From positions 288,001-352,000 of the forward strand of contig CAVTRY010000007.1 of the NCBI GenBank assembly GCA_963737265.1: DNA of 64,000 nucleotides, written 5' to 3'. The position numbers were made by a program, and so were the translations under genes. Under the pieces are notes generated by a model, which was not told where the DNA came from, searched no databases, and saw only the letters and a list, made by a program, of their open reading frames with translations. Source of the DNA: an uncultured delta proteobacterium (lineage in GTDB: Bacteria; Myxococcota_A; Polyangia; Fen-1088). Positions 5,644 to 19,873 of the stretch are shown piece by piece (positions within the stretch are counted from its first letter, which is position 1; each line of letters begins with the position of its first letter).

Positions 5644-7235
5644 GTCCGCCGCCTGTGCCCATCGGCCCGCCCGTGGACGACGGGTATCGCTGGCGCGTTC
5701 TTGGCGTGGTCATGCTGGGCACGGTAATGTCGGCGCTCGATTCGAGCATCGTCAACGTGTCGCTGCCCAACATGATGGCCAGCTTCGGCGCAAGCGTCGA
5801 CGACATCGAATGGGTCGTGACCGGTTACATGCTCGGCTTCTCGACCTTCATGCCCTTGACAGCGTGGCTTCGCGATCGCGTGGGTTACAAGGTGCTCTAT
5901 GTCGCCAGCCTCGCTGTTTTCATCGGTGGCTCCGCGCTGTGCGGACTCGCCCCCAACCTGCCGGCGCTGATCTTGGCTCGCGTGGTTCAAGCGTTCGGCG
6001 GCGGCGCCATCACCCCCACCGGCCTGGCCATGATCGCCGAGGTCTTCCCGCCCAAAGAGCGAGGGCGCGCGCTTGGCCTGTGGGGCGTCGGTGTCGTGGT
6101 TGGGCCCGCTTTCGGCCCCACCCTGGGCGGATACCTCACCGAGACGCTCGGCTGGCGCAGCATCTTCAACATCAACCTTCCCATCGGCGTAGTCGGCCTT
6201 CTCGCCGCCTCGCGGATACTTCGCGCCGACAAGCCGCACGCCGCGAGCCATCGTGGCTTCGATCTACCCGGGTTCGTGTTGCTCACCGCCTTTCTCGTCG
6301 GCGCACTACTCGGTCTCTCCAACGGCAATCGGGAAGGTTGGACCTCGAACTACGTCGTTGCCTGCGCGCTTGTGAGCAGCGTCTCGTTCGTGCTTTTCCT
6401 CGCCGTCGAAAGCATCGTCTCCGAGCGCATTCTCGATCTCGGGCTATTCCGCAAACCCCAGTTCACCGTGGCCATGGTGGTGACGTCCGCGCGCTCGGTC
6501 GCCTTGTTCGGTGGCATCTTTTTGTTGCCACTTTTCCTGCAGGATCTGATGGGCCGGAGCGAGATCGACACCGGGTTATTACTGCTTCCCGGCGCCTTGG
6601 TCATGGGGCTGGTCATGCTGGTCTCCGGCCGGATCGCGGATTGGCTCGGCACGCGCGTTTGCACGATTCTCGGCCTCTTGTTCATTGCTTGGTTCATGTG
6701 GACCTACCGCAGGCTCGACGTGACGACGAGCACGTGGGCCGTGCTCTACCCGACCCTGGTACGGGGTGTCGGGCTGGGTCTGCTGGTGACGCCGGTCATG
6801 ACCGCAGCTATCAATGCCGTGCCGACGCCGAAAGCCGGCATGGCTTCTTCGATGTTGAGCTTGATTCAACAAATATCGGGCTCGCTCGGCATCGCCGTGC
6901 TTGCCTGCGTACTCGGCCGGCGTGCCACCTTCCACCTCGCGGTGGTGGGTCAGGGCCTGGATGCCGCGCGACCGGCCCTCGCCGGCGCAACCCGAGCCCT
7001 CGCCACGCGCGCGCTCGAGCTTGGAACGCCGCCCGCCGCGGCAGGCCTAGTCGCGCGCTCGCTCGTCGCGCGCCAGATCGCCGGAGCGGCGTCGGTGCTC
7101 GCATTCAACGATGCCTTTCTAATCGGCGCGGCCATCGTCGGCGCGGGAGCCATCCCCGCGCTTTTTCTCGCATCCAAGTCGAAGTCCAAGGCACGCGCGC
7201 ACGGAGCCGCAGCGCAGGTCGAGGTTGTGGAGTAG
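5640..7235 (+). CDS. emrB: DHA2-family MFS efflux permease (EmrB/QacA)
   Basis: 'MSALDSSIVNVSLP', 'WRSIFNINLPIG', many TM segments. Confidence 0.92.
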   Translation: MSPPPVPIGPPVDDGYRWRVLGVVMLGTVMSALDSSIVNVSLPNMMASFGASVDDIEWVVTGYMLGFSTFMPLTAWLRDRVGYKVLYVASLAVFIGGSALCGLAPNLPALILARVVQAFGGGAITPTGLAMIAEVFPPKERGRALGLWGVGVVVGPAFGPTLGGYLTETLGWRSIFNINLPIGVVGLLAASRILRADKPHAASHRGFDLPGFVLLTAFLVGALLGLSNGNREGWTSNYVVACALVSSVSFVLFLAVESIVSERILDLGLFRKPQFTVAMVVTSARSVALFGGIFLLPLFLQDLMGRSEIDTGLLLLPGALVMGLVMLVSGRIADWLGTRVCTILGLLFIAWFMWTYRRLDVTTSTWAVLYPTLVRGVGLGLLVTPVMTAAINAVPTPKAGMASSMLSLIQQISGSLGIAVLACVLGRRATFHLAVVGQGLDAARPALAGATRALATRALELGTPPAAAGLVARSLVARQIAGAASVLAFNDAFLIGAAIVGAGAIPALFLASKSKSKARAHGAAAQVEVVE

Positions 7236-8129: not shown

Positions 8130-8253
8130 GTCCAACGCCTTGGCGTTAAGCTGCGGGCGGCCGTCTGCGACCGCCCATCTGCCCAGACGACCCGAATCAC
8201 TCCCTGTTCTTTTTACTTGCACTGCCTACGAGCGCTTCAACGGCCTGTTGGGC
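8130..8253 (-). other. attC site (124 bp)
   Basis: R'' GCCCAAC, L'' GTTGAAGC, L' GCTTAAC, R' GTTGGAC, with one extrahelical base in L''. Confidence 0.88.
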
Positions 8254-8262
8254 GGCGCACAC

Positions 8263-10531: not shown

Positions 10532-10544
10532 GCCCAACGCTTTG
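10532..10544 (-). other. distal 13 bp (spacer + R' GTTGGGC) of the intron-interrupted attC
   Basis: CAAAGC-GTTGGGC matches CAAGGC-GTTCGAC of the sibling attC 13116-13219. Confidence 0.88.
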
Positions 10545-12430
10545 ATCGGCATAGGGGCCTCGACAGATCGTCAAGGACCCCTGCCACACCACCCGGCGTG
10601 CGGGTCCGCACCGGGCGGTTCGGGAAGTTGAGGTTACGTGGCCAGCCGGGGTACCCCCAACTGGTCAAAGTAGCGAATGGGAAATGCCACGTTCATCATA
10701 CTAGCCGAGTTTTTCCACCAGCGGCGACAGTTCACGGCCACTACGCCTGCTGCGTCATGGGACATCCCCCGAGCCCGCAGTTCCCGATAGACGGTCGATT
10801 GTTGTCCCCAGTGTTTCAAGTGGAGAGCCCGTAGGCGACGGCGAATCCATTTGTCCAAGTTGCCAAAGACCCGAGGCGTGTCCGCGAGCCGGAAGTATTC
10901 CTTCCAACCACGCAGATATTCCCCCAGCCGTTTGCAGACCTGGCCAATGCTTTGCCCGCCCGTCCGCCTCGTGATGTTCCGGACTTTGTCCTTCATCGTG
11001 GCAAGGGCTTTGTCTGCCACCGCGCGCTTCACCGTTCCTTCCCGGTTTACCCAGAATGTGTAACCCAGGATTTTCCGGTTCCACGCCAAGCCCACCGCGC
11101 TTTTCGTTTCATTGACTTGAAGTCGCAGTCCCGCGTAGAGCCGCCGTAGCAGCCCCATCACACGCTCGCCCGCACGCCGCGACCGAAGGTATACGTTGCA
11201 GTCATCAGCGTACCGGCAGAATGCGTGCCCGCGTTTCTCCAGCTCCTTGTCCACTTCGTCGAGCAGCACGTTGGCTAGCAGCGGTGACAAGGGGCCGCCT
11301 TGTGGCGTTCCCTCGTACCGCTCCGTCGCCACCCCGCCAGCCATAATGCCGGCCCCGAGGTAACGCCGGATGAGCCCCAGCAAACGACGGTCGCCGATGC
11401 GTTTCGCCAGTCTTCCCATCAGCACGTCGTGGTTCACGCGGTCAAAGAATTGCTCCAAGTCCACGTCTACCACCCACTTGCGTCCGCCCTGGATATACCC
11501 CTGCGCCTCGACGATGGCGTCGTGCGCACGGTGCCCAGGCCGGAAACCGTGGCTGTGCTTTGAGAAGTCCGGGTCGAACATCGGTTGCAGAACCTGCAAT
11601 ACAGCCTGCTGGATGAATCGGTCGACCACCGTCGGAATGCCAAGCTTGCGCATTCCTCCGCTGGCCTTCGGTATGAGTTGCTCCTTCACAAGCGCGGGCT
11701 GGTACGTCCCCGCGAGCAGTTCCTCGCGCAGCCGTGGCCAGTATTCGCGCAGGTGTATCGGCAATTCATCCACCGTCATCCCGTCGATGCCGGGACTGCC
11801 CTTGTTCCTTCTCACTCGCTTCAGCGCGGCCAAAAGGTTCGGGCGTTCGCACACCCTCTCCATCAGGCCGCTCGCTCCCGAGCGCTCGTTTTCACACGTC
11901 GCCGTCGGCGCTTCCTCGCTTCGTTTTCCCGTCGGGGTTTCACCCCTATTTGAAAACGTTAGCTCCAGTTGCCTGGTCATCTGAGGCCGTTTGCTTCCGA
12001 GACGCATGTTCGTTTCGCTCTCCTTCTCGTTCAGTCCTTCGCATCGCCAAAGACTTCCGGCGTCGGTGATATCGCCGCCCCGGCTTCGACTTCGCTACTA
12101 CGACCTCTGCTGACTTCTCGCCCCGTCGCGTCCGCGCCGTCGCCCTTTCAGGCACAAGGCGAGATCTCCCCAGGTAAGTACGTCGTCCTTCCCCGCACGA
12201 CCGCCGGATCTACGTAGCCTGAGCTTTGACCATCGAGGCTTTGTGGCAACGGGCCCACTCGCCCCGCTCGGCGCCGCCTCTTATCCGGTTTTTGTTCATC
12301 AGCCCGCGGTTTCGCTCCCTGCTTCCTCCCCACGATTGGTCGCCCTTTCGCAGTTGCAGTTCGCTTCGTTTGGGATGGTCTCCTTTCGGGGGGACTTGCA
12401 CCCCCAAGACGACGCCCATGCTGGGCGCAC
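10545..12430 (-). mobile_element. group IIC intron (1886 nt) inserted in an attC site
   Basis: 5' GTGCGCCCAGCATGGGCG; short DV with CGC triad (GAACCGCCCGGTGCGGACCCGCACGCCGGGTGGTG); DVI ending CCTATGCCGAT; removal restores a 104-bp attC. Confidence 0.95.
10634..12007 (-). CDS. ltrA: group II intron reverse transcriptase/maturase (no En domain)
   Basis: 'LGIPTVVDRFIQQA', 'GTPQGGPLSPLLAN', 'RYADD'. Confidence 0.95.
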   Translation of the reverse strand: MRLGSKRPQMTRQLELTFSNRGETPTGKRSEEAPTATCENERSGASGLMERVCERPNLLAALKRVRRNKGSPGIDGMTVDELPIHLREYWPRLREELLAGTYQPALVKEQLIPKASGGMRKLGIPTVVDRFIQQAVLQVLQPMFDPDFSKHSHGFRPGHRAHDAIVEAQGYIQGGRKWVVDVDLEQFFDRVNHDVLMGRLAKRIGDRRLLGLIRRYLGAGIMAGGVATERYEGTPQGGPLSPLLANVLLDEVDKELEKRGHAFCRYADDCNVYLRSRRAGERVMGLLRRLYAGLRLQVNETKSAVGLAWNRKILGYTFWVNREGTVKRAVADKALATMKDKVRNITRRTGGQSIGQVCKRLGEYLRGWKEYFRLADTPRVFGNLDKWIRRRLRALHLKHWGQQSTVYRELRARGMSHDAAGVVAVNCRRWWKNSASMMNVAFPIRYFDQLGVPRLAT

Positions 12431-12521
12431 CCGTTCAGCGGCAAGCCCGCCGCCGAGTCGGCGCTTCTATTCTACACGATGTCCCTGCGGCGGGATTGTC
12501 AGCTGCAACGGCTTGTTCGAC
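12431..12521 (-). other. proximal 91 bp of the intron-interrupted attC
   Basis: R'' GTCGAAC, L'' GTTGCAGC, L' GCTGAAC; highly similar to 13116-13219. Confidence 0.9.
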
Positions 12522-12551: not shown

Positions 12552-12926
12552 CTACTTCTTGGGCGGCTTCTTGCTCACCGTCATCGATCCCTTGGTCATA
12601 CGTGCGCCACCACCCTGGTCCAGCAGAACGGTCAACTCCGCCGAAGCGTCGACATTCAGCTTCTTCGGCGCGTTCGTCGAGATGACGATCGTCTGTTGGC
12701 CGAGATGAAAAGTGGTGGTACCAGACTCGATGGTGACGATCAGTGCTACGTTCGTCTGGTTCTTCACTTTCAGCTCAAGCTTGGCTCCTTCCTCCTTGGC
12801 CGTGAAGGTGAGGGCGAGCTGACCTGCGTCGAAGCCGTCCTTCAGCAGCACCGTTTCGCCGGCGAGGGCGGATCCGGCTGCCACGATCGTCATCACCAGC
12901 GCCATGACCATGAAGAGCTTTGTCAC
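12552..12926 (-). CDS. cassette 2: small secreted hypothetical protein
   Basis: GGAG RBS, GTG start, signal peptide 'MTKLFMVMALVMTIVAAGSALA'; bracketed by GTTCGAC/GTCGAAC. Confidence 0.8.
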   Translation of the reverse strand: MTKLFMVMALVMTIVAAGSALAGETVLLKDGFDAGQLALTFTAKEEGAKLELKVKNQTNVALIVTIESGTTTFHLGQQTIVISTNAPKKLNVDASAELTVLLDQGGGARMTKGSMTVSKKPPKK

Positions 12927-13115: not shown

Positions 13116-13219
13116 GTCGAACGCCTTGCCGTTCAGCTGCAAGCCCGCCGCCGAGTCGGCGCCTCGATTCTACACGATATCTCTGCGGCGGGATTGTCAG
13201 CTGCAACGGCTTGTTCGGC
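13116..13219 (-). other. attC site (104 bp)
   Basis: GCCGAAC-aagcc-GTTGCAGC...cccgccgc...gcggcggg...GCTGAAC-ggcaaggc-GTTCGAC imperfect palindrome. Confidence 0.93.
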
Positions 13220-14313: not shown

Positions 14314-15321
14314 CTAATGCCTGATGTTCTGCAGGAACTCCGGATCGGCACGAACTCTGGCAATCCAGGCCCGATGCGCGGTTCCGAAGGCTGGGATGGT
14401 CCTGACCGCGGCAGGATGAGCAAGAGGGAGCCACGCGACAGAACGACCGCCGAGACGCAGGCTCACGGCCTTTCCGTAATCGTGACCCGCTGACAGGGCG
14501 GTAGGTGCAACCGAGCCGCCGTCCTTCGCCAGAAGCGTACGCAGCACGCGAAGGGCGGCATTCCCCAGGGTTACGATGACCTTGGGCTGAGCCTTCTCGA
14601 GCTCAGCCATCAACCGACGGCGCTGTGGTTGTTCCAGACCTTCTTGCACGATCGCATCCTCAGAAGGGTGGTGGGCAAGGGCTGCTGGCGGCGCCTTCGC
14701 GGCTGCAGCAAAGTGTGCGTAGGTATCTGCGATACGTTCTTCAGCACCCTCGCTGGCACGGTAGGTGTCCAGCACATCGGTGATCCAGACATCGCTGCGG
14801 ACAACCCCCAGCGGTGCTAGGAAATCGTGTGCTAGCTCAACTCCTGAGGAGCCGTTCAGTTTGCCGGTTGGTTCGACCCTGCCCCATTGGTTCTCGTCGA
14901 ACCTGACCTTGCGCTTCCACTCAGCGACTACTTCTACTTCGTCCGATCCCTGCCAAAAGGGCTCGGGTTCATTGTCCACGGGGAGCGCGCGCACGGTCTT
15001 GCCTGCCCTCGGCGGCGTCCATTGAACGTGAACGGCACTTGGGTAGGCACCTAGCACGAAGAGCAAACGCGGCGTGGATGCAGATGGCGGCCGCCGAAGA
15101 ACATGCGCTCCGAAGGGAAACCTATATTCTGGTAAATGGTCACCGGCGGTGTCCGTCGAGCTGGCGGCGATTCGGGCTGAGTTCATTCGCTCTTCTCCAC
15201 CGTCTCCTGCCAAAGTCAGTTTGCTCGCGACCAGAACCGTCAGCGCTGCGCCCAGCGAGCAAAGCGTACTGCCAGTCTGGGGCACGGACAGCATCATCTC
15301 ACTTTTCGAACGCAAATACAT
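14314..15321 (-). CDS. cassette 1, ORF 1: uracil-DNA glycosylase superfamily protein
   Basis: 'FVLGAYP', 'VWITD', 'QPKVIVTLGNAA', 'LPLAHPAA' UDG-like motifs; start uncertain. Confidence 0.7.
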   Translation of the reverse strand: MYLRSKSEMMLSVPQTGSTLCSLGAALTVLVASKLTLAGDGGEERMNSARIAASSTDTAGDHLPEYRFPFGAHVLRRPPSASTPRLLFVLGAYPSAVHVQWTPPRAGKTVRALPVDNEPEPFWQGSDEVEVVAEWKRKVRFDENQWGRVEPTGKLNGSSGVELAHDFLAPLGVVRSDVWITDVLDTYRASEGAEERIADTYAHFAAAAKAPPAALAHHPSEDAIVQEGLEQPQRRRLMAELEKAQPKVIVTLGNAALRVLRTLLAKDGGSVAPTALSAGHDYGKAVSLRLGGRSVAWLPLAHPAAVRTIPAFGTAHRAWIARVRADPEFLQNIRH

Positions 15322-15534: not shown

Positions 15535-15707
15535 TCAGTGGTCGAGAGGGCTTCGGACTCCACCAGCGCCGCGGTTCAGGACGTGGGTGTAGACCATGGT
15601 CGTGGCCACGTCTTTGTGGCCTAGCAACTCCTGAATCGTGCGGATGTCGTAGCCGTCTTCCAGCAGGTGGGTGGCGAAGGAATGACGCAAGGTGTGGGGG
15701 CTGACCA
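15535..15707 (-). pseudogene. intI: integron integrase, 3' remnant
   Basis: '[55 protein letters not shown]'; 5' part replaced by the emrB copy. Confidence 0.92.
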
Positions 15708-17020
15708 GCTCCGCGCTGTGCGGACTCGCCCCCAACCTGCCGGCGCTGATCTTGGCTCGCGTGGTTCAAGCGTTCGGCGGCGGCGCCATCACCCCCACCG
15801 GCCTGGCCATGATCGCCGAGGTCTTCCCGCCCAAAGAGCGAGGGCGCGCGCTTGGCCTGTGGGGCGTCGGTGTCGTGGTTGGGCCCGCTTTCGGCCCCAC
15901 CCTGGGCGGATACCTCACCGAGACGCTCGGCTGGCGCAGCATCTTCAACATCAACCTTCCCATCGGCGTAGTCGGCCTTCTCGCCGCCTCGCGGATACTT
16001 CGCGCCGACAAGCCGCACGCCGCGAGCCATCGTGGCTTCGATCTACCCGGGTTCGTGTTGCTCACCGCCTTTCTCGTCAGCGCACTACTCGGTCTCTCCA
16101 ACGGCAATCGGGAAGGTTGGACCTCGAACTACGTCGTTGCCTGCGCGCTTGTGAGCAGCGTCTCGTTCGTGCTTTTCCTCGCCGTCGAAAGCATCGTCTC
16201 CGAGCGCATTCTCGATCTCGGGCTATTCCGCAAACCCCAGTTCACCGTGGCCATGGTGGTGACGTCCGCGCGCTCGGTCGCCTTGTTCGGTGGCATCTTT
16301 TTGTTGCCACTTTTCCTGCAGGATCTGATGGGCCGAAGCGAGATCGACACCGGGTTGTTACTGCTTCCCGGCGCCTTGGTCATGGGGCTGGTCATGCTGG
16401 TCTCCGGCCGGATCGCGGATTGGCTCGGCACGCGCGTTTGCACGATTCTCGGCCTCTTGTTCATTGCTTGGTTCATGTGGACCTACCGCAGGCTCGACGT
16501 GACGACGAGCACGTGGGCCGTGCTCTACCCGACCCTGGTACGGGGTGTCGGGCTGGGTCTGCTGGTGACGCCGGTCATGACCGCAGCTATCAATGCCGTG
16601 CCGACGCCGAAAGCCGGCATGGCTTCTTCGATGTTGAGCTTGATTCAACAAATATCGGGCTCGCTCGGCATTGCCGTGCTTGCCTGCGTACTTGGCCGGC
16701 GTGCCACCTTCCACCTCGCGGTGGTGGGTCAGGGCCTGGATGCCGCGCGACCGGCCCTCGCCGGCGCAACCCGCGCCCTCGCCACGCGCGCGCTCGAGCT
16801 TGGAACGCCGCCCGCCGCGGCAGGCCTAGTCGCGCGCTCGCTCATCGCACGCCAGATCGCTGGAGCGGCGTCGGTACTCGCATTCAACGATGCCTTTCTA
16901 ATCGGCGCGGCCATCGTCGGCGCGGGAGCCATCCCCGCGCTTTTTCTCGCATCCAAGTCGAAGTCCAAGGCACGCGCGCACGGAGCCGCAGCGCAGGTCG
17001 AGGTTGTGGAGTAGAGGCCG
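15708..17020 (+). pseudogene. emrB: 5'-truncated duplicate of emrB (repeat copy 2)
   Basis: ~99% identical to 5929-7241; lacks the first ~96 codons; frame still open. Confidence 0.93.
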
Positions 17021-17528: not shown

Positions 17529-18377
17529 TTACATCGCCCCATTGTTGTCGGGGGTAGTTGTCGTTGGTTGATCGGTAGTTGTCGTAGTTGTCGCTGGGGT
17601 GGTGACGCCTCTCTTTCGTGCTTCTTCGCTGCGGTAGCTGGGGCCGGTCATCTCAAGGATGACCGCGTGGTGGACCAGTCGGTCGATGGCGGCGGCGGTG
17701 GTCATGGGATCCTTGAAAATGCGGATCCAATCGCTGAAGACCAGGTTGCTGGTGATGAGGACGCTCTTGCGTTCGTACCGCTCGGCCAGGAAGGTGAAAA
17801 GGACCTCCATTTCATCGCGGCTCTGCTGGACGTAGCCGATGTCGTCGAGGATCACGGCGTGATAGATGTTGAGCGCGGCCAGTTCTCGTTCCAGGCGAAG
17901 GTCGCGCTTGGCGGCCAGCAGCCTCTGGACAAGCGCGAAGGTCGGCGTGAAGAGGACCCGGTAGCCGCGCCGGATGAGTTCGTGGCCGATGGCAGCCACA
18001 ACGTGACTTTTGCCTCGGCCGGGCAGTCCGAAGACGAGCAGGTTCTCCCCACGTTCGACAAAGCCACCCTCACACAGGCTCGCCATCTGCTTCATCACCT
18101 TGGGTGACAGCCGACCACGTTCCAGGGTGGCCAGGGTTTTCTCCGTGGGAAGGTCCGAATCGCGAAGCGCGCGATCGATGCGACGGGTTCGGCGCTCTTC
18201 GATTTCCAGTTCGGCCAGGTGCTGGAGGTATTGGCTGAAGGTCCACCCCTCGCGGCTGGCCTTGATCGCGATCTCCTCGGCGTGCCGGGTGAAGGCAGGC
18301 AGCTTGAGCGCGCGCAGAAGCACCAGCAGAGCGTCGAGCGCGCTCGGCTTGACCGTGTCTACGGAGACGTTGGTCAT
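17529..18377 (-). CDS. istB: IS21 helper ATPase
   Basis: Walker A 'GLPGRGKSH', 'ILDDIGY', 'AAIDRLVHH'. Confidence 0.93.
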   Translation of the reverse strand: MTNVSVDTVKPSALDALLVLLRALKLPAFTRHAEEIAIKASREGWTFSQYLQHLAELEIEERRTRRIDRALRDSDLPTEKTLATLERGRLSPKVMKQMASLCEGGFVERGENLLVFGLPGRGKSHVVAAIGHELIRRGYRVLFTPTFALVQRLLAAKRDLRLERELAALNIYHAVILDDIGYVQQSRDEMEVLFTFLAERYERKSVLITSNLVFSDWIRIFKDPMTTAAAIDRLVHHAVILEMTGPSYRSEEARKRGVTTPATTTTTTDQPTTTTPDNNGAM

Positions 18378-19873
18378 GATGCCACCTGTTCGAGGAGCAG
18401 GTCGTAGGACGCGAGATCGACCAGCGGTGCTTCGAGCGCGGGGACGCTCGGTGGATAGGTACTGTCCGTCGCCTGTGTGCATCTCTTCTTGGTTGCATCC
18501 GCCGTCAAGATGGTCCCATCGGCAAGCAGAGTCGTGAGCGCTTGCTCGACATCGGCTTCCATCGTGCTGGCGGCCAGGTGAAGAATGCGCAGGTATTCAA
18601 CGTCGCCTTTGATTCCAGGCTTGGTCGCCTGGATCGCGTCGTATGCCCGCCTGAAAGTCACGCTTGGAAACAGCTCTTCTCGGTAGACGTAGCGAGAAAA
18701 CGCGCCCGGCTTGCGCACCAAAGACCAGATGACGTGCCGGTAGTCGATGCGCGCGGTCTTGCCTCGCAGCCTGTCGCAGGCCAATTCCAAGTTGTCGGCG
18801 TAGTACACCTCGATTCGGTGCTCGAACACGCGGACTCTCACCCGTGCGCCGATCAGCCTCGACGGCACCGAGTAGGCGCACGACTTGACCCGGATGGTGC
18901 TCGTCGACGCCACAGGTGCCGTCATTTCTGCGTACTCCGGCAAACGCTCCACCACCAGCGGCCGCATGGCTTCGATCTCCTCGGCGACGCGCGGGCCTCG
19001 CGAAGCGTTGGCTTTGCGGACCACCTTGGCTACGAAGCGTTCGTAGTCGTCTTGGTCCGCGAAGTCGCGGCTGCCACGCACCAGCAACGCTTGTTCAAGC
19101 CGACGCTTGAGCGCGCCGTTGCTGGCCTCCACATCGCCGTTTTGTTCCTTGGCCCCGACGGCTGTAGTTCGTGGCTCCATTCCGAGGTGCCGCATGACCG
19201 CCTTGTATTCATCGTTGAAAGTGCGATCTTCCGCATCGCGAGCGATCTGATGTGTCGCCGCCGTCGAGTGGTCGGTTTGGTGGTATCGCGGCACCCGCCC
19301 AAGCTGGAACAGCGCCGACTGGATCCCTCGCCGAAGCGCTGCCAGAGACTCCGACAGACACGCGGTCGCCCATTGCCAGTTCGAGTACGGCAGCACCGTC
19401 ACGCACAAAAGGTGCACAAATAGCTGGCCCACGATCGTCACACCAAGCTCCGCCGTCGACGTGAAGTCGGTTTGCGCGGCTTCACCGGGCCGATGCGCCT
19501 GCGTGAACCAAATCTCACGCGCAGGACCATGCTCGGCCCGCCAGCGACGGATTCGCCGCTGCATTGTCCGAAGATGGCTCTCGTTGTACCGCCCTGGCTG
19601 CTTCGCCTCCAGCAGCTCCAGCACCGTCTGAGCCTCCAGCCCAGGCGTTTCCTCCAGCAACTTGGCCACGGCTGGCCAGTCCTCGGCGAACGCGTCAGGG
19701 CGCGTCCGCCACCACCGCGGCTGCCGTAGCTCCGACGGTAGCTTGCCCGCGGCGATGTATCGCCGCCCTGTCTTCCGGTCCATGCCCGCCTTCATGGCGG
19801 CCTGGCCTACTTTTCCAATCTTGCTCATCTCTTCCATCAAACGCCTCACTTGGGCGTCGGTGACCGGCTTCAA
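18374..19873 (-). CDS. istA: IS21 transposase
   Basis: 'AGMDRKTGRRY', 'PGEAAQTDF', 'YSVPSRLIG'. Confidence 0.92.
   Translation of the reverse strand: MKPVTDAQVRRLMEEMSKIGKVGQAAMKAGMDRKTGRRYIAAGKLPSELRQPRWWRTRPDAFAEDWPAVAKLLEETPGLEAQTVLELLEAKQPGRYNESHLRTMQRRIRRWRAEHGPAREIWFTQAHRPGEAAQTDFTSTAELGVTIVGQLFVHLLCVTVLPYSNWQWATACLSESLAALRRGIQSALFQLGRVPRYHQTDHSTAATHQIARDAEDRTFNDEYKAVMRHLGMEPRTTAVGAKEQNGDVEASNGALKRRLEQALLVRGSRDFADQDDYERFVAKVVRKANASRGPRVAEEIEAMRPLVVERLPEYAEMTAPVASTSTIRVKSCAYSVPSRLIGARVRVRVFEHRIEVYYADNLELACDRLRGKTARIDYRHVIWSLVRKPGAFSRYVYREELFPSVTFRRAYDAIQATKPGIKGDVEYLRILHLAASTMEADVEQALTTLLADGTILTADATKKRCTQATDSTYPPSVPALEAPLVDLASYDLLLEQVAS

Follow-up and report, generated by a model that had tools for sequence, protein, structure and literature searches.

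Group IIC (class C) introns that insert at transcription terminators (Robart, Seo & Zimmerly 2007; summarised in PMC4424553) and IIC-attC introns (S.ma.I2 and its kin) are the closest described systems to the element considered here. According to the available parts of PMC3001079 and PMC7923331, the latter occupy attC, the recombination site of integron cassettes, where they lie in the bottom strand, antisense to the cassettes, at TTGT/T in the R'' box (a slash marks the insertion point). A sense, top-strand IIC intron was described in an attC of E. cloacae (Rodriguez-Martinez 2012, as cited in PMC7923331), and an intron of S. algae KC-Na-R1 was reported "in the same orientation" (PMC9229058). 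Here, we analysed a stretch of 64,000 nt (the window) from an uncultured delta proteobacterium (Myxococcota_A; Polyangia; Fen-1088; assembly GCA_963737265.1, contig CAVTRY010000007.1, positions 288,001 to 352,000). An initial annotation had noticed in it a group IIC intron located in an attC's top strand, had stated the bottom-strand rule, and had allowed that top-strand cases might already be on record; the sources above agree with it on both of these last points. The observation is confirmed overall and its interpretation is partly supported. The element is very probably an intact, recently mobile IIC intron of the lineage associated with terminator hairpins, for which the attCs of the host became the main homing sites through a match of its exon-binding sites, EBS1 and EBS3, to AACGG/C.

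The intron, its copies and its target sites

The window carries, on its minus strand, a complete class C intron of 1886 nt (Table 1). The 5' end, GTGCG, agrees with the GUGYG consensus and the 3' end reads ...CCCCTATGCCGAT (terminal CCGAT). A full-length match to the Rfam model group-II-D1D4-3 exceeds the gathering threshold of 32 bits; D1D4-1, at 12142-12034, reaches 34.6 bits, marginally below its cut-off of 35. Minimum-energy folding of the last 100 nt yields a domain V-like hairpin, then a domain VI-like hairpin before the 3' AY. No Rfam domain V or VI family matched the intron at E 0.1, and the two domains are probably assigned correctly, as judged from the fold and from a 3' end conserved in relatives. 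The candidate branch A, chosen by eye, is the eighth base from the 3' end. The intron-encoded protein (IEP; 457 aa) contains reverse transcriptase (RT; RVT_1, 8.3e-37) and maturase or X (GIIM, 1.5e-19) domains and a YADD motif; these are its only Pfam domains, and no endonuclease domain was found among them. As expected for class C, short pairings of EBS1 and EBS3 with the intron-binding sites IBS1 and IBS3 lie beside an upstream DNA hairpin, with no long homing site (EBS2 was not searched for). The protein nests among hairpin-inserting and attC-inserting introns in trees whose class labels denote insertion behaviour, not a curated class reference set. The Rfam match, the RT and maturase protein and the limits shared by four copies bear out the group IIC intron of the initial annotation.

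Four full-length copies are found in the genome, matching over positions 1-1886 with 0-1 nt differences; relative to the window copy, the other three share one substitution, C>T at 10747. Since the flanks of the copies diverge immediately outside 12430 and 10545, the intron boundaries are fixed. Three copies (the window copy, C17:97267 and C11:1168309, C numbers denoting contigs) occupy one identical position in three different attC sites, after ...GCTGAACGG and before CAA(A/G)GCGTT.... In the window, the attC is split between L' and R' (...GCTGAACGG/CAAAGCGTTGGGC). The fourth copy (C14:93221) sits after a plain GC-rich hairpin, at ...GCCGGCCTCGCGGCCGGCTCATCGG/CCGTGC. Fragments of the intron, a 5' part on C13 and a 26-nt 3' remnant on C12, mark the same attC position. 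The hexamer AACGGC occurs 5514 times genome-wide, and five of the six insertions or remnants fall within the 27 top-strand attC sites that carry it. The near-identity of copies in three attCs and after one plain hairpin speaks for recent mobility. A near-identical intron, with the C>T at 10747 typical of the other three copies, is present in two soil DNA metagenome runs; contigs from RNA libraries are 93-97% alike and continue into other exons, which shows that they derive from relatives.

Rejoined by coordinates, the two exon parts form a site of 104 nt, identical without gaps at 95 of 104 positions to an empty sibling attC that carries AACGG/C. Thus, as had been claimed, removal of the intron restores a 104-bp attC like its sibling, which offers the same ACGG/C, and the junction lies in the L'-R' spacer in all three attC copies. 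The sites have the features of attC: an imperfect palindrome R''-L''...L'-R' with RYYYAAC and GTTRRRY ends, unpaired bases on one arm, and an arrangement in arrays beside an integron integrase. This attC family makes up about ten arrays in the genome, as called with our own motif and fold criteria and not with a curated attC covariance model; a strict hairpin finder missed most attCs and a mismatch-tolerant motif scan was noisy outside arrays. The L'-R' spacer of the family is 8 nt long (GGCAAGGC) and highly conserved (e.g. C17:104460-104530 and the window sibling).

Exon pairing and the strand of insertion

The initial annotation had placed EBS1 at CCGU and EBS3 at a single G by eye. In the Rfam alignment, CCGU (12252-12249) falls within the 8-nt terminal loop GCCCGUUG of domain I; it is complementary to ACGG, and the complementarity extends to CCGUU/AACGG. 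Covariation was examined in 70 entries (68 after identical ones were dropped), drawn from six introns of same-order genomes, the window copy, the C14 copy and the 63 of 80 loci in other genomes for which a 5' junction was found. In an unbiased scan of each alignment column against each exon position, exon positions -1, -2 and -3 paired best with intron positions 179 (93%, n=68), 180 (96%, n=68) and 181 (98%, n=66), and position -4 with 182 (59%, n=64). Positions 182-183 are complementary in the window intron but less constrained across the family. Intron position 221 pairs with the first base of the 3' exon in 55 of 63 introns (G-C 22, G-T 19, A-T 13, T-G 1); its column is tied for the highest mutual information with a rival that pairs in only 30%. 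The same rule fits the junction of the S. algae plasmid intron (loop ACG, exon ...CGT). Both assignments made by eye, and the location of EBS1 in a domain I loop, are therefore borne out.

These pairings suggest a mechanism. Members of the lineage normally insert directly after terminator-like DNA hairpins, at sites chosen by 3-5 bp between EBS1 and IBS1 and by one EBS3-IBS3 pair. With EBS1 (CCGUU) and EBS3 (G) matching AACGG/C, conserved at the L'-spacer junction of the host attC family, and with the attC top-strand hairpin substituting for the terminator stem-loop, attCs very probably became the main homing sites. Retrohoming would probably follow an endonuclease-independent route into single-stranded DNA.

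Three lines of evidence, gene orientation, hairpin geometry and the position of intI, agree that the intron lies in the cassette-coding top strand, co-oriented with the cassettes as first annotated. First, 18 of 24 Pfam-supported genes within arrays lie on the R''-L''...L'-R' strand, which is that of the intron (E<=1e-6, open reading frames (ORFs) of >=90 aa; transposases, recombinases and intron proteins set aside). Second, in the folded attC sites the unpaired bases are on the arm that holds the AAC triplet, a geometry given for top strands in PMC5027507, bottom strands having them on the opposite arm. Third, C17 carries an intact intI (TIGR02249, 456 bits against a cut-off of 265) on the same strand as the intron, 416 bp upstream of its array's first attC; this layout is named "inverted integron-integrase" in 10.1101/030866. 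Gene calling based on GC3 was also tried for cassette orientation (31 same-strand, 28 opposite) and was rejected, as several long "ORFs" crossed attCs into the intron.

Hairpin geometry also bears on another possibility, namely a mirror-type attC whose recombinogenic strand carries the intron and is "top" by gene orientation only, the integrase substrate being targeted as it is by IIC-attC introns. The unpaired bases of the intron strand, G16 and T23, indeed have the identities and numbering given for bottom strands (PMC5027507). However, bottom-strand unpaired bases sit opposite the AAC triplet in that source, and here they are on the AAC arm. Moreover, the spacers (5 nt R''-L'', 8 nt L'-R') and the extra L'' base copy the top-strand layout of attC aadA1 (L129), and the cassette genes are on the intron's strand. 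A mirror-type attC is thus very unlikely, and the geometry suggests that the recombinogenic strand of this family is the bottom one.

It should be noted that several points weigh against a top-strand intron that finds its attC by these pairings and is spliced from array transcripts. The gene tally covers 296 of 432 ORFs, with the array C13:448500-462000 (L144) and many nested ORFs left out, and six matches at the margins of arrays (TMEM175, LMF1, FHA, AA_kinase, LeuA, Unstab_antitox) were excluded as flanking by judgement. All six opposite-strand cassette genes encode PIN-domain toxins. With G and T on the top strand, the presumed bottom strand would carry unpaired C and A, which is atypical, the bottom strands of studied attCs having G and T (PMC5027507). 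As to the pairings, position 221 is unpaired with the first 3' exon base in 8 of 63 introns, and the junction of a close relative (G083) departs from both the EBS1 and the EBS3 rule. Finally, the exon joint 10544/12431 was absent from four metagenome runs (two DNA, two RNA) examined as contigs, which cannot show splicing.

The antisense PIN genes belong to the arrays C7:243500-248000, C11:1-4000, C13:369500-377500 and C21:198500-201500; other toxin-antitoxin genes (BrnT/CopG, PemK, HicB, Fic) are in sense.

L'' and L' being near-palindromic, AACGG/C also occurs in the bottom strand of these attCs, as ...CAACGG/CTTGTT.... Nevertheless, occupied AACGG/C sites of the arrays are all in the top strand (22 empty and 5 occupied, vs 27 empty and none occupied in the bottom strand; Fisher p 0.051). 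As the motif is the same on both strands, base pairing alone does not explain strand choice, and this exclusivity (5/27 vs 0/27) offers a natural test case for the features, other than base pairing, by which a IIC intron recognises a DNA hairpin. Possible causes are the placing of the bottom strand's unpaired bases immediately next to IBS1, on the 3' arm, a greater exposure of top strands at replication forks, or selection against polar antisense insertions. In sedentary chromosomal integrons, attC bottom strands lay on the leading strand's template in 25 of 30 cases (PMC5371416), so that top strands would be exposed at forks. Among the six insertion places of the 25-contig assembly, GC skew is clearly consistent with fork exposure at C17 and weakly so at C7 and C14; at C11 it is inconsistent at 50-200 kb and consistent locally.

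Given the coding-strand insertion, a read-through transcript of the array would carry the intron in sense and could splice it in vivo. On the DNA, 1.9 kb separate the R' box from the remainder of the site, so that the bottom strand presumably could not form the R box or a recombinogenic attC. The split site would have lost attC function, and the cassette upstream of it (12552-12926) and the next one would behave as one unit. The proposal of the initial annotation that the intron is co-transcribed and spliced with the array and locks cassettes 2 and 3 together is therefore a reasonable one. If the intron splices, two cassettes could be frozen together without silencing, unlike the situation created by the polar antisense IIC-attC introns of clinical integrons.

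Relatives and lineage of the intron-encoded protein

Among 89 genomes of the same order, 11, including that of the window (G000), have an IEP match at E<=1e-60, the relatives being 54-87% identical to the window protein. The intron of G034 (87% protein identity) and that of G045 (84%, partial) occupy the same attC position as the window intron. Three introns of G033 (64-67%) lie 3 nt upstream (GCTTAA/CGGCAAAGCGTT) and have UUA as EBS1. In a Burkholderiales metagenome-assembled genome, an intron (L049, 69%) with EBS1 AUA is found at CAGCTTAT/CGGCC.... The S. algae KC-Na-R1 plasmid intron (L129, 47%) interrupts the R' box of attC aadA1 (...AAGCGT/TAGAT) in the same direction as cmlA5-blaOXA-10-aadA1-qacEdelta1-sul1. 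Over the 80 loci collected from other genomes, a GC-rich hairpin precedes nearly all readable junctions, and attC-like sites, as judged by eye, are limited to L049 and L091. The top strand of attC is the one used by the introns of G034, G045, G033, L049 and the S. algae plasmid.

The intron of G083 (80%) is inserted after a hairpin and T-run. Its junction (locus L019/L043) reads GGGGTTTTTCGT/GTGCG.../CGCTGC, in the terminator T-run, 3-4 nt downstream of the position predicted by its own EBS1 (AAG) and EBS3 (A); either an off-target insertion or a later junction change may account for this.

The copies and relatives allow a further explanation to be weighed, namely that copies spread by movement or duplication of intron-bearing cassettes, through integrase or homologous recombination, and that the attC preference reflects one founding event. 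Cassettes do move, and the intron-hosting attCs form one sequence family. However, central parts and neighbouring cassettes are not the same in the three occupied attCs (the C11 site also has an IS110-family element), one copy is outside any attC, and in other genomes relatives use this spot, or one 3 nt upstream, with EBS1 changed to match. We give this explanation hardly any credence.

The initial annotation had interpreted the intron as a retargeted lineage of IIC-attC introns. For comparison, five introns antisense to class 1 integron cassettes were used (beside blaIMP-4, blaIMP-38, dfrA14 and aadA1, and in a dfrA12 array); one of them, L130, has the classical .../TAGAC 3' junction in attC aadA1. 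Protein trees were built from 75 and 46 proteins, the second without 24 redundant rows and without L045, L047, L052, L088 and L089. The five antisense introns form their own clade (99, starred). The window protein groups with G034, G052, G083, L046 and L044 (96, starred), and this six-row clade is nested in a 32-row clade (100, starred) made almost wholly of hairpin-inserting introns. The window protein is 38-45% identical to the five antisense introns vs 54-87% to its same-order relatives, and 57% identical to a Sinorhizobium meliloti plasmid intron protein. Forcing the window pair together with the five antisense introns cost 74.8 log-likelihood units (approximately unbiased (AU) test, p 0.0026, for a group named after the first tree had been seen). 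Hence the window protein is outside the clade of IIC-attC introns, the monophyletic subset by which that lineage is recognised (PMC3001079), and retargeting from it is not borne out. A strand-flipped member of the classical lineage would account for a IIC intron in an attC and, as IIC-attC introns retain terminator use (PMC7923331), for the one non-attC copy, but identity, the separate clades, the AU test and insertion at AACGG/C between L' and R' in three attC copies, instead of at TTGT/T in R'' antisense to the cassettes, leave it almost no chance. As judged from its sequence, the window intron is a terminator-type IIC intron whose EBS1 fits the attC motif, and not a IIC-attC intron that has flipped.

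A different group II intron with a 580-aa open frame is present in at least seven copies in G035, a genome of the same genus (loci L024, L029, L032 and others). Its protein is 43-45% identical to that of the window and, on a long branch, falls outside the 35-row starred clade to which the window protein belongs.

Introns in the top strand of attCs occupy four positions in the tree, those of the window clade, of G033, of L049 and of the S. algae plasmid; strong support is limited to the split between the S. algae row and the others. This spread suggests that IIC introns take to attCs easily in evolution, and that doing so is not a property of one lineage. A stronger proposal, which we regard as unlikely, is that IIC introns that seek terminators retune EBS1, repeatedly and independently, to the conserved L'-spacer junction of host attCs, then colonise the coding strand only despite the same IBS motif in the bottom strand. 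If this were true, the intron particle would read the asymmetry of the attC hairpin or strand exposure at replication forks, and a sense insertion between L' and R' would lock cassettes against excision while remaining silent in the RNA. A terminator-borne copy that recombined with an attC-borne one would then graft an R' core site onto the terminator hairpin of a gene, a sense-strand route to new cassettes.

Integron setting and relation to known systems

The local integron integrase of the window was lost to insertion sequences. Its remnant is abutted by one copy of a repeat (D1) of 300 nt found, 100% identical, at 15708-16007 and 5929-6228, the other copy being inside an MFS transporter ORF. 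An IS21-type pair (IstB and a Mu-transposase-like/rve protein) is located at 17529-19873. The only Pfam match among the cassette ORFs of the window is a UDG-like ORF (14314-15321, minus strand, E 1.3e-6). Elsewhere, a chromosomal array of C11 contains in sense a 450-aa gene of the serine beta-lactamase family (C11:1194282-1195631, or L139:9282-10631; PF00144, 8e-72), preceded by a PadR regulator and a DUF1048 gene.

Table 1. Positions of the intron, its parts and neighbouring integron features in the window.
Feature	Positions	Strand	Evidence or remark
Complete group IIC (class C) intron, 5' GTGCG, 3' ...CCGAT	10545..12430	-	Rfam match; four copies with the same limits
Intron-encoded protein, 457 aa, RT and maturase (X), YADD	10634..12007	-	RVT_1, GIIM
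Domain I distal part (group-II-D1D4-3), with EBS1 hairpin and EBS3 internal loop	12178..12349	-	100.6 bits
EBS1 CCGUU (intron 179-183), in loop GCCCGUUG	12248..12252	-	covariation
EBS3 G (intron 221), internal loop GUA-G-AUCCGG	12210..12210	-	covariation
Domain V-like hairpin	10588..10619	-	fold
Domain VI-like hairpin; candidate branch A 10552	10553..10582	-	fold; branch A by eye
5' exon part of split attC: R'' GTCGAAC 12521-12515, L'' GTTGCAGC 12509-12502, L' GCTGAAC 12439-12433, IBS1 AACGG 12435-12431	12431..12521	-	
3' exon part of split attC: IBS3 C 10544, spacer, R' GTTGGGC 10538-10532	10532..10544	-	
Empty sibling attC with the same AACGG/C	13116..13219	-	95/104 vs rejoined site
Cassette ORF, 124 aa, no Pfam match, upstream of split attC, on the intron's strand	12552..12926	-	
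Integron integrase C-terminal remnant, 57 residues, model positions 258-314	15538..15708	-	106 bits to TIGR02249; abuts insertion sequence copy

An IS110-family element (about 1.9 kb, Pfam Transposase_20) is inserted in at least five attC sites, directly after L'' (GTTGCAGC/) and always antisense to the cassettes (C17:94990-96890, C17:100007-101894, C17:109201-109772 with 111144-112275, C11:1166346-1168241 and C13:376785-374889). Short matches to its first 80 nt or so are found at 8180-8257 of the window and at C11:1196710-1196781, and one C11 attC hosts both this element and the intron. IS1111 elements are said to target attC, reportedly in work of Post and Hall from 2008, and the IS110-family element resembles them. 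Integron arrays are usually discussed as integrase substrates alone; here, the same attCs are homing sites for a sense retroelement and an antisense IS110-family element.

No published IIC intron in a myxobacterial integron, and none targeting the L'-R' spacer, was found in the literature searched. Further sense-strand cases may be catalogued in Rodriguez-Martinez 2012, Leon & Roy 2009 (two papers), Quiroga & Centron 2009 and the supplementary figures of PMC9229058. What is new here is modest: the lineage is independent and resides in chromosomal integrons, its position inside attC is new, and relatives repeat the use of the top strand. Ordinary terminator-seeking IIC introns can adopt integron hairpins as homing sites, which had been reported only a few times before.

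The window intron shares with terminator-type IIC introns a small ribozyme, an RT and X protein without an endonuclease domain, an upstream hairpin, a short EBS1 and a single-base EBS3; its nearest relatives and one of its own copies also follow plain hairpins. It departs from them in that three of its four full copies and both fragments use the attC hairpin, with IBS1 inside the 3' arm of the extended attC stem. Like IIC-attC introns (S.ma.I2 and its kin), it is a IIC intron that homes to the attC hairpin and splits the site; unlike them, it is in sense, in the top strand, at AACGG/C between L' and R', and its IEP belongs to a separate clade. The S. algae intron is at another attC position, inside the R' core site of attC aadA1, and its protein falls outside the 32-row clade of the window protein. 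Finally, in contrast with the sense IIC introns of class 1 integrons, the window intron resides, in several copies, in the chromosomal integron of a soil bacterium.

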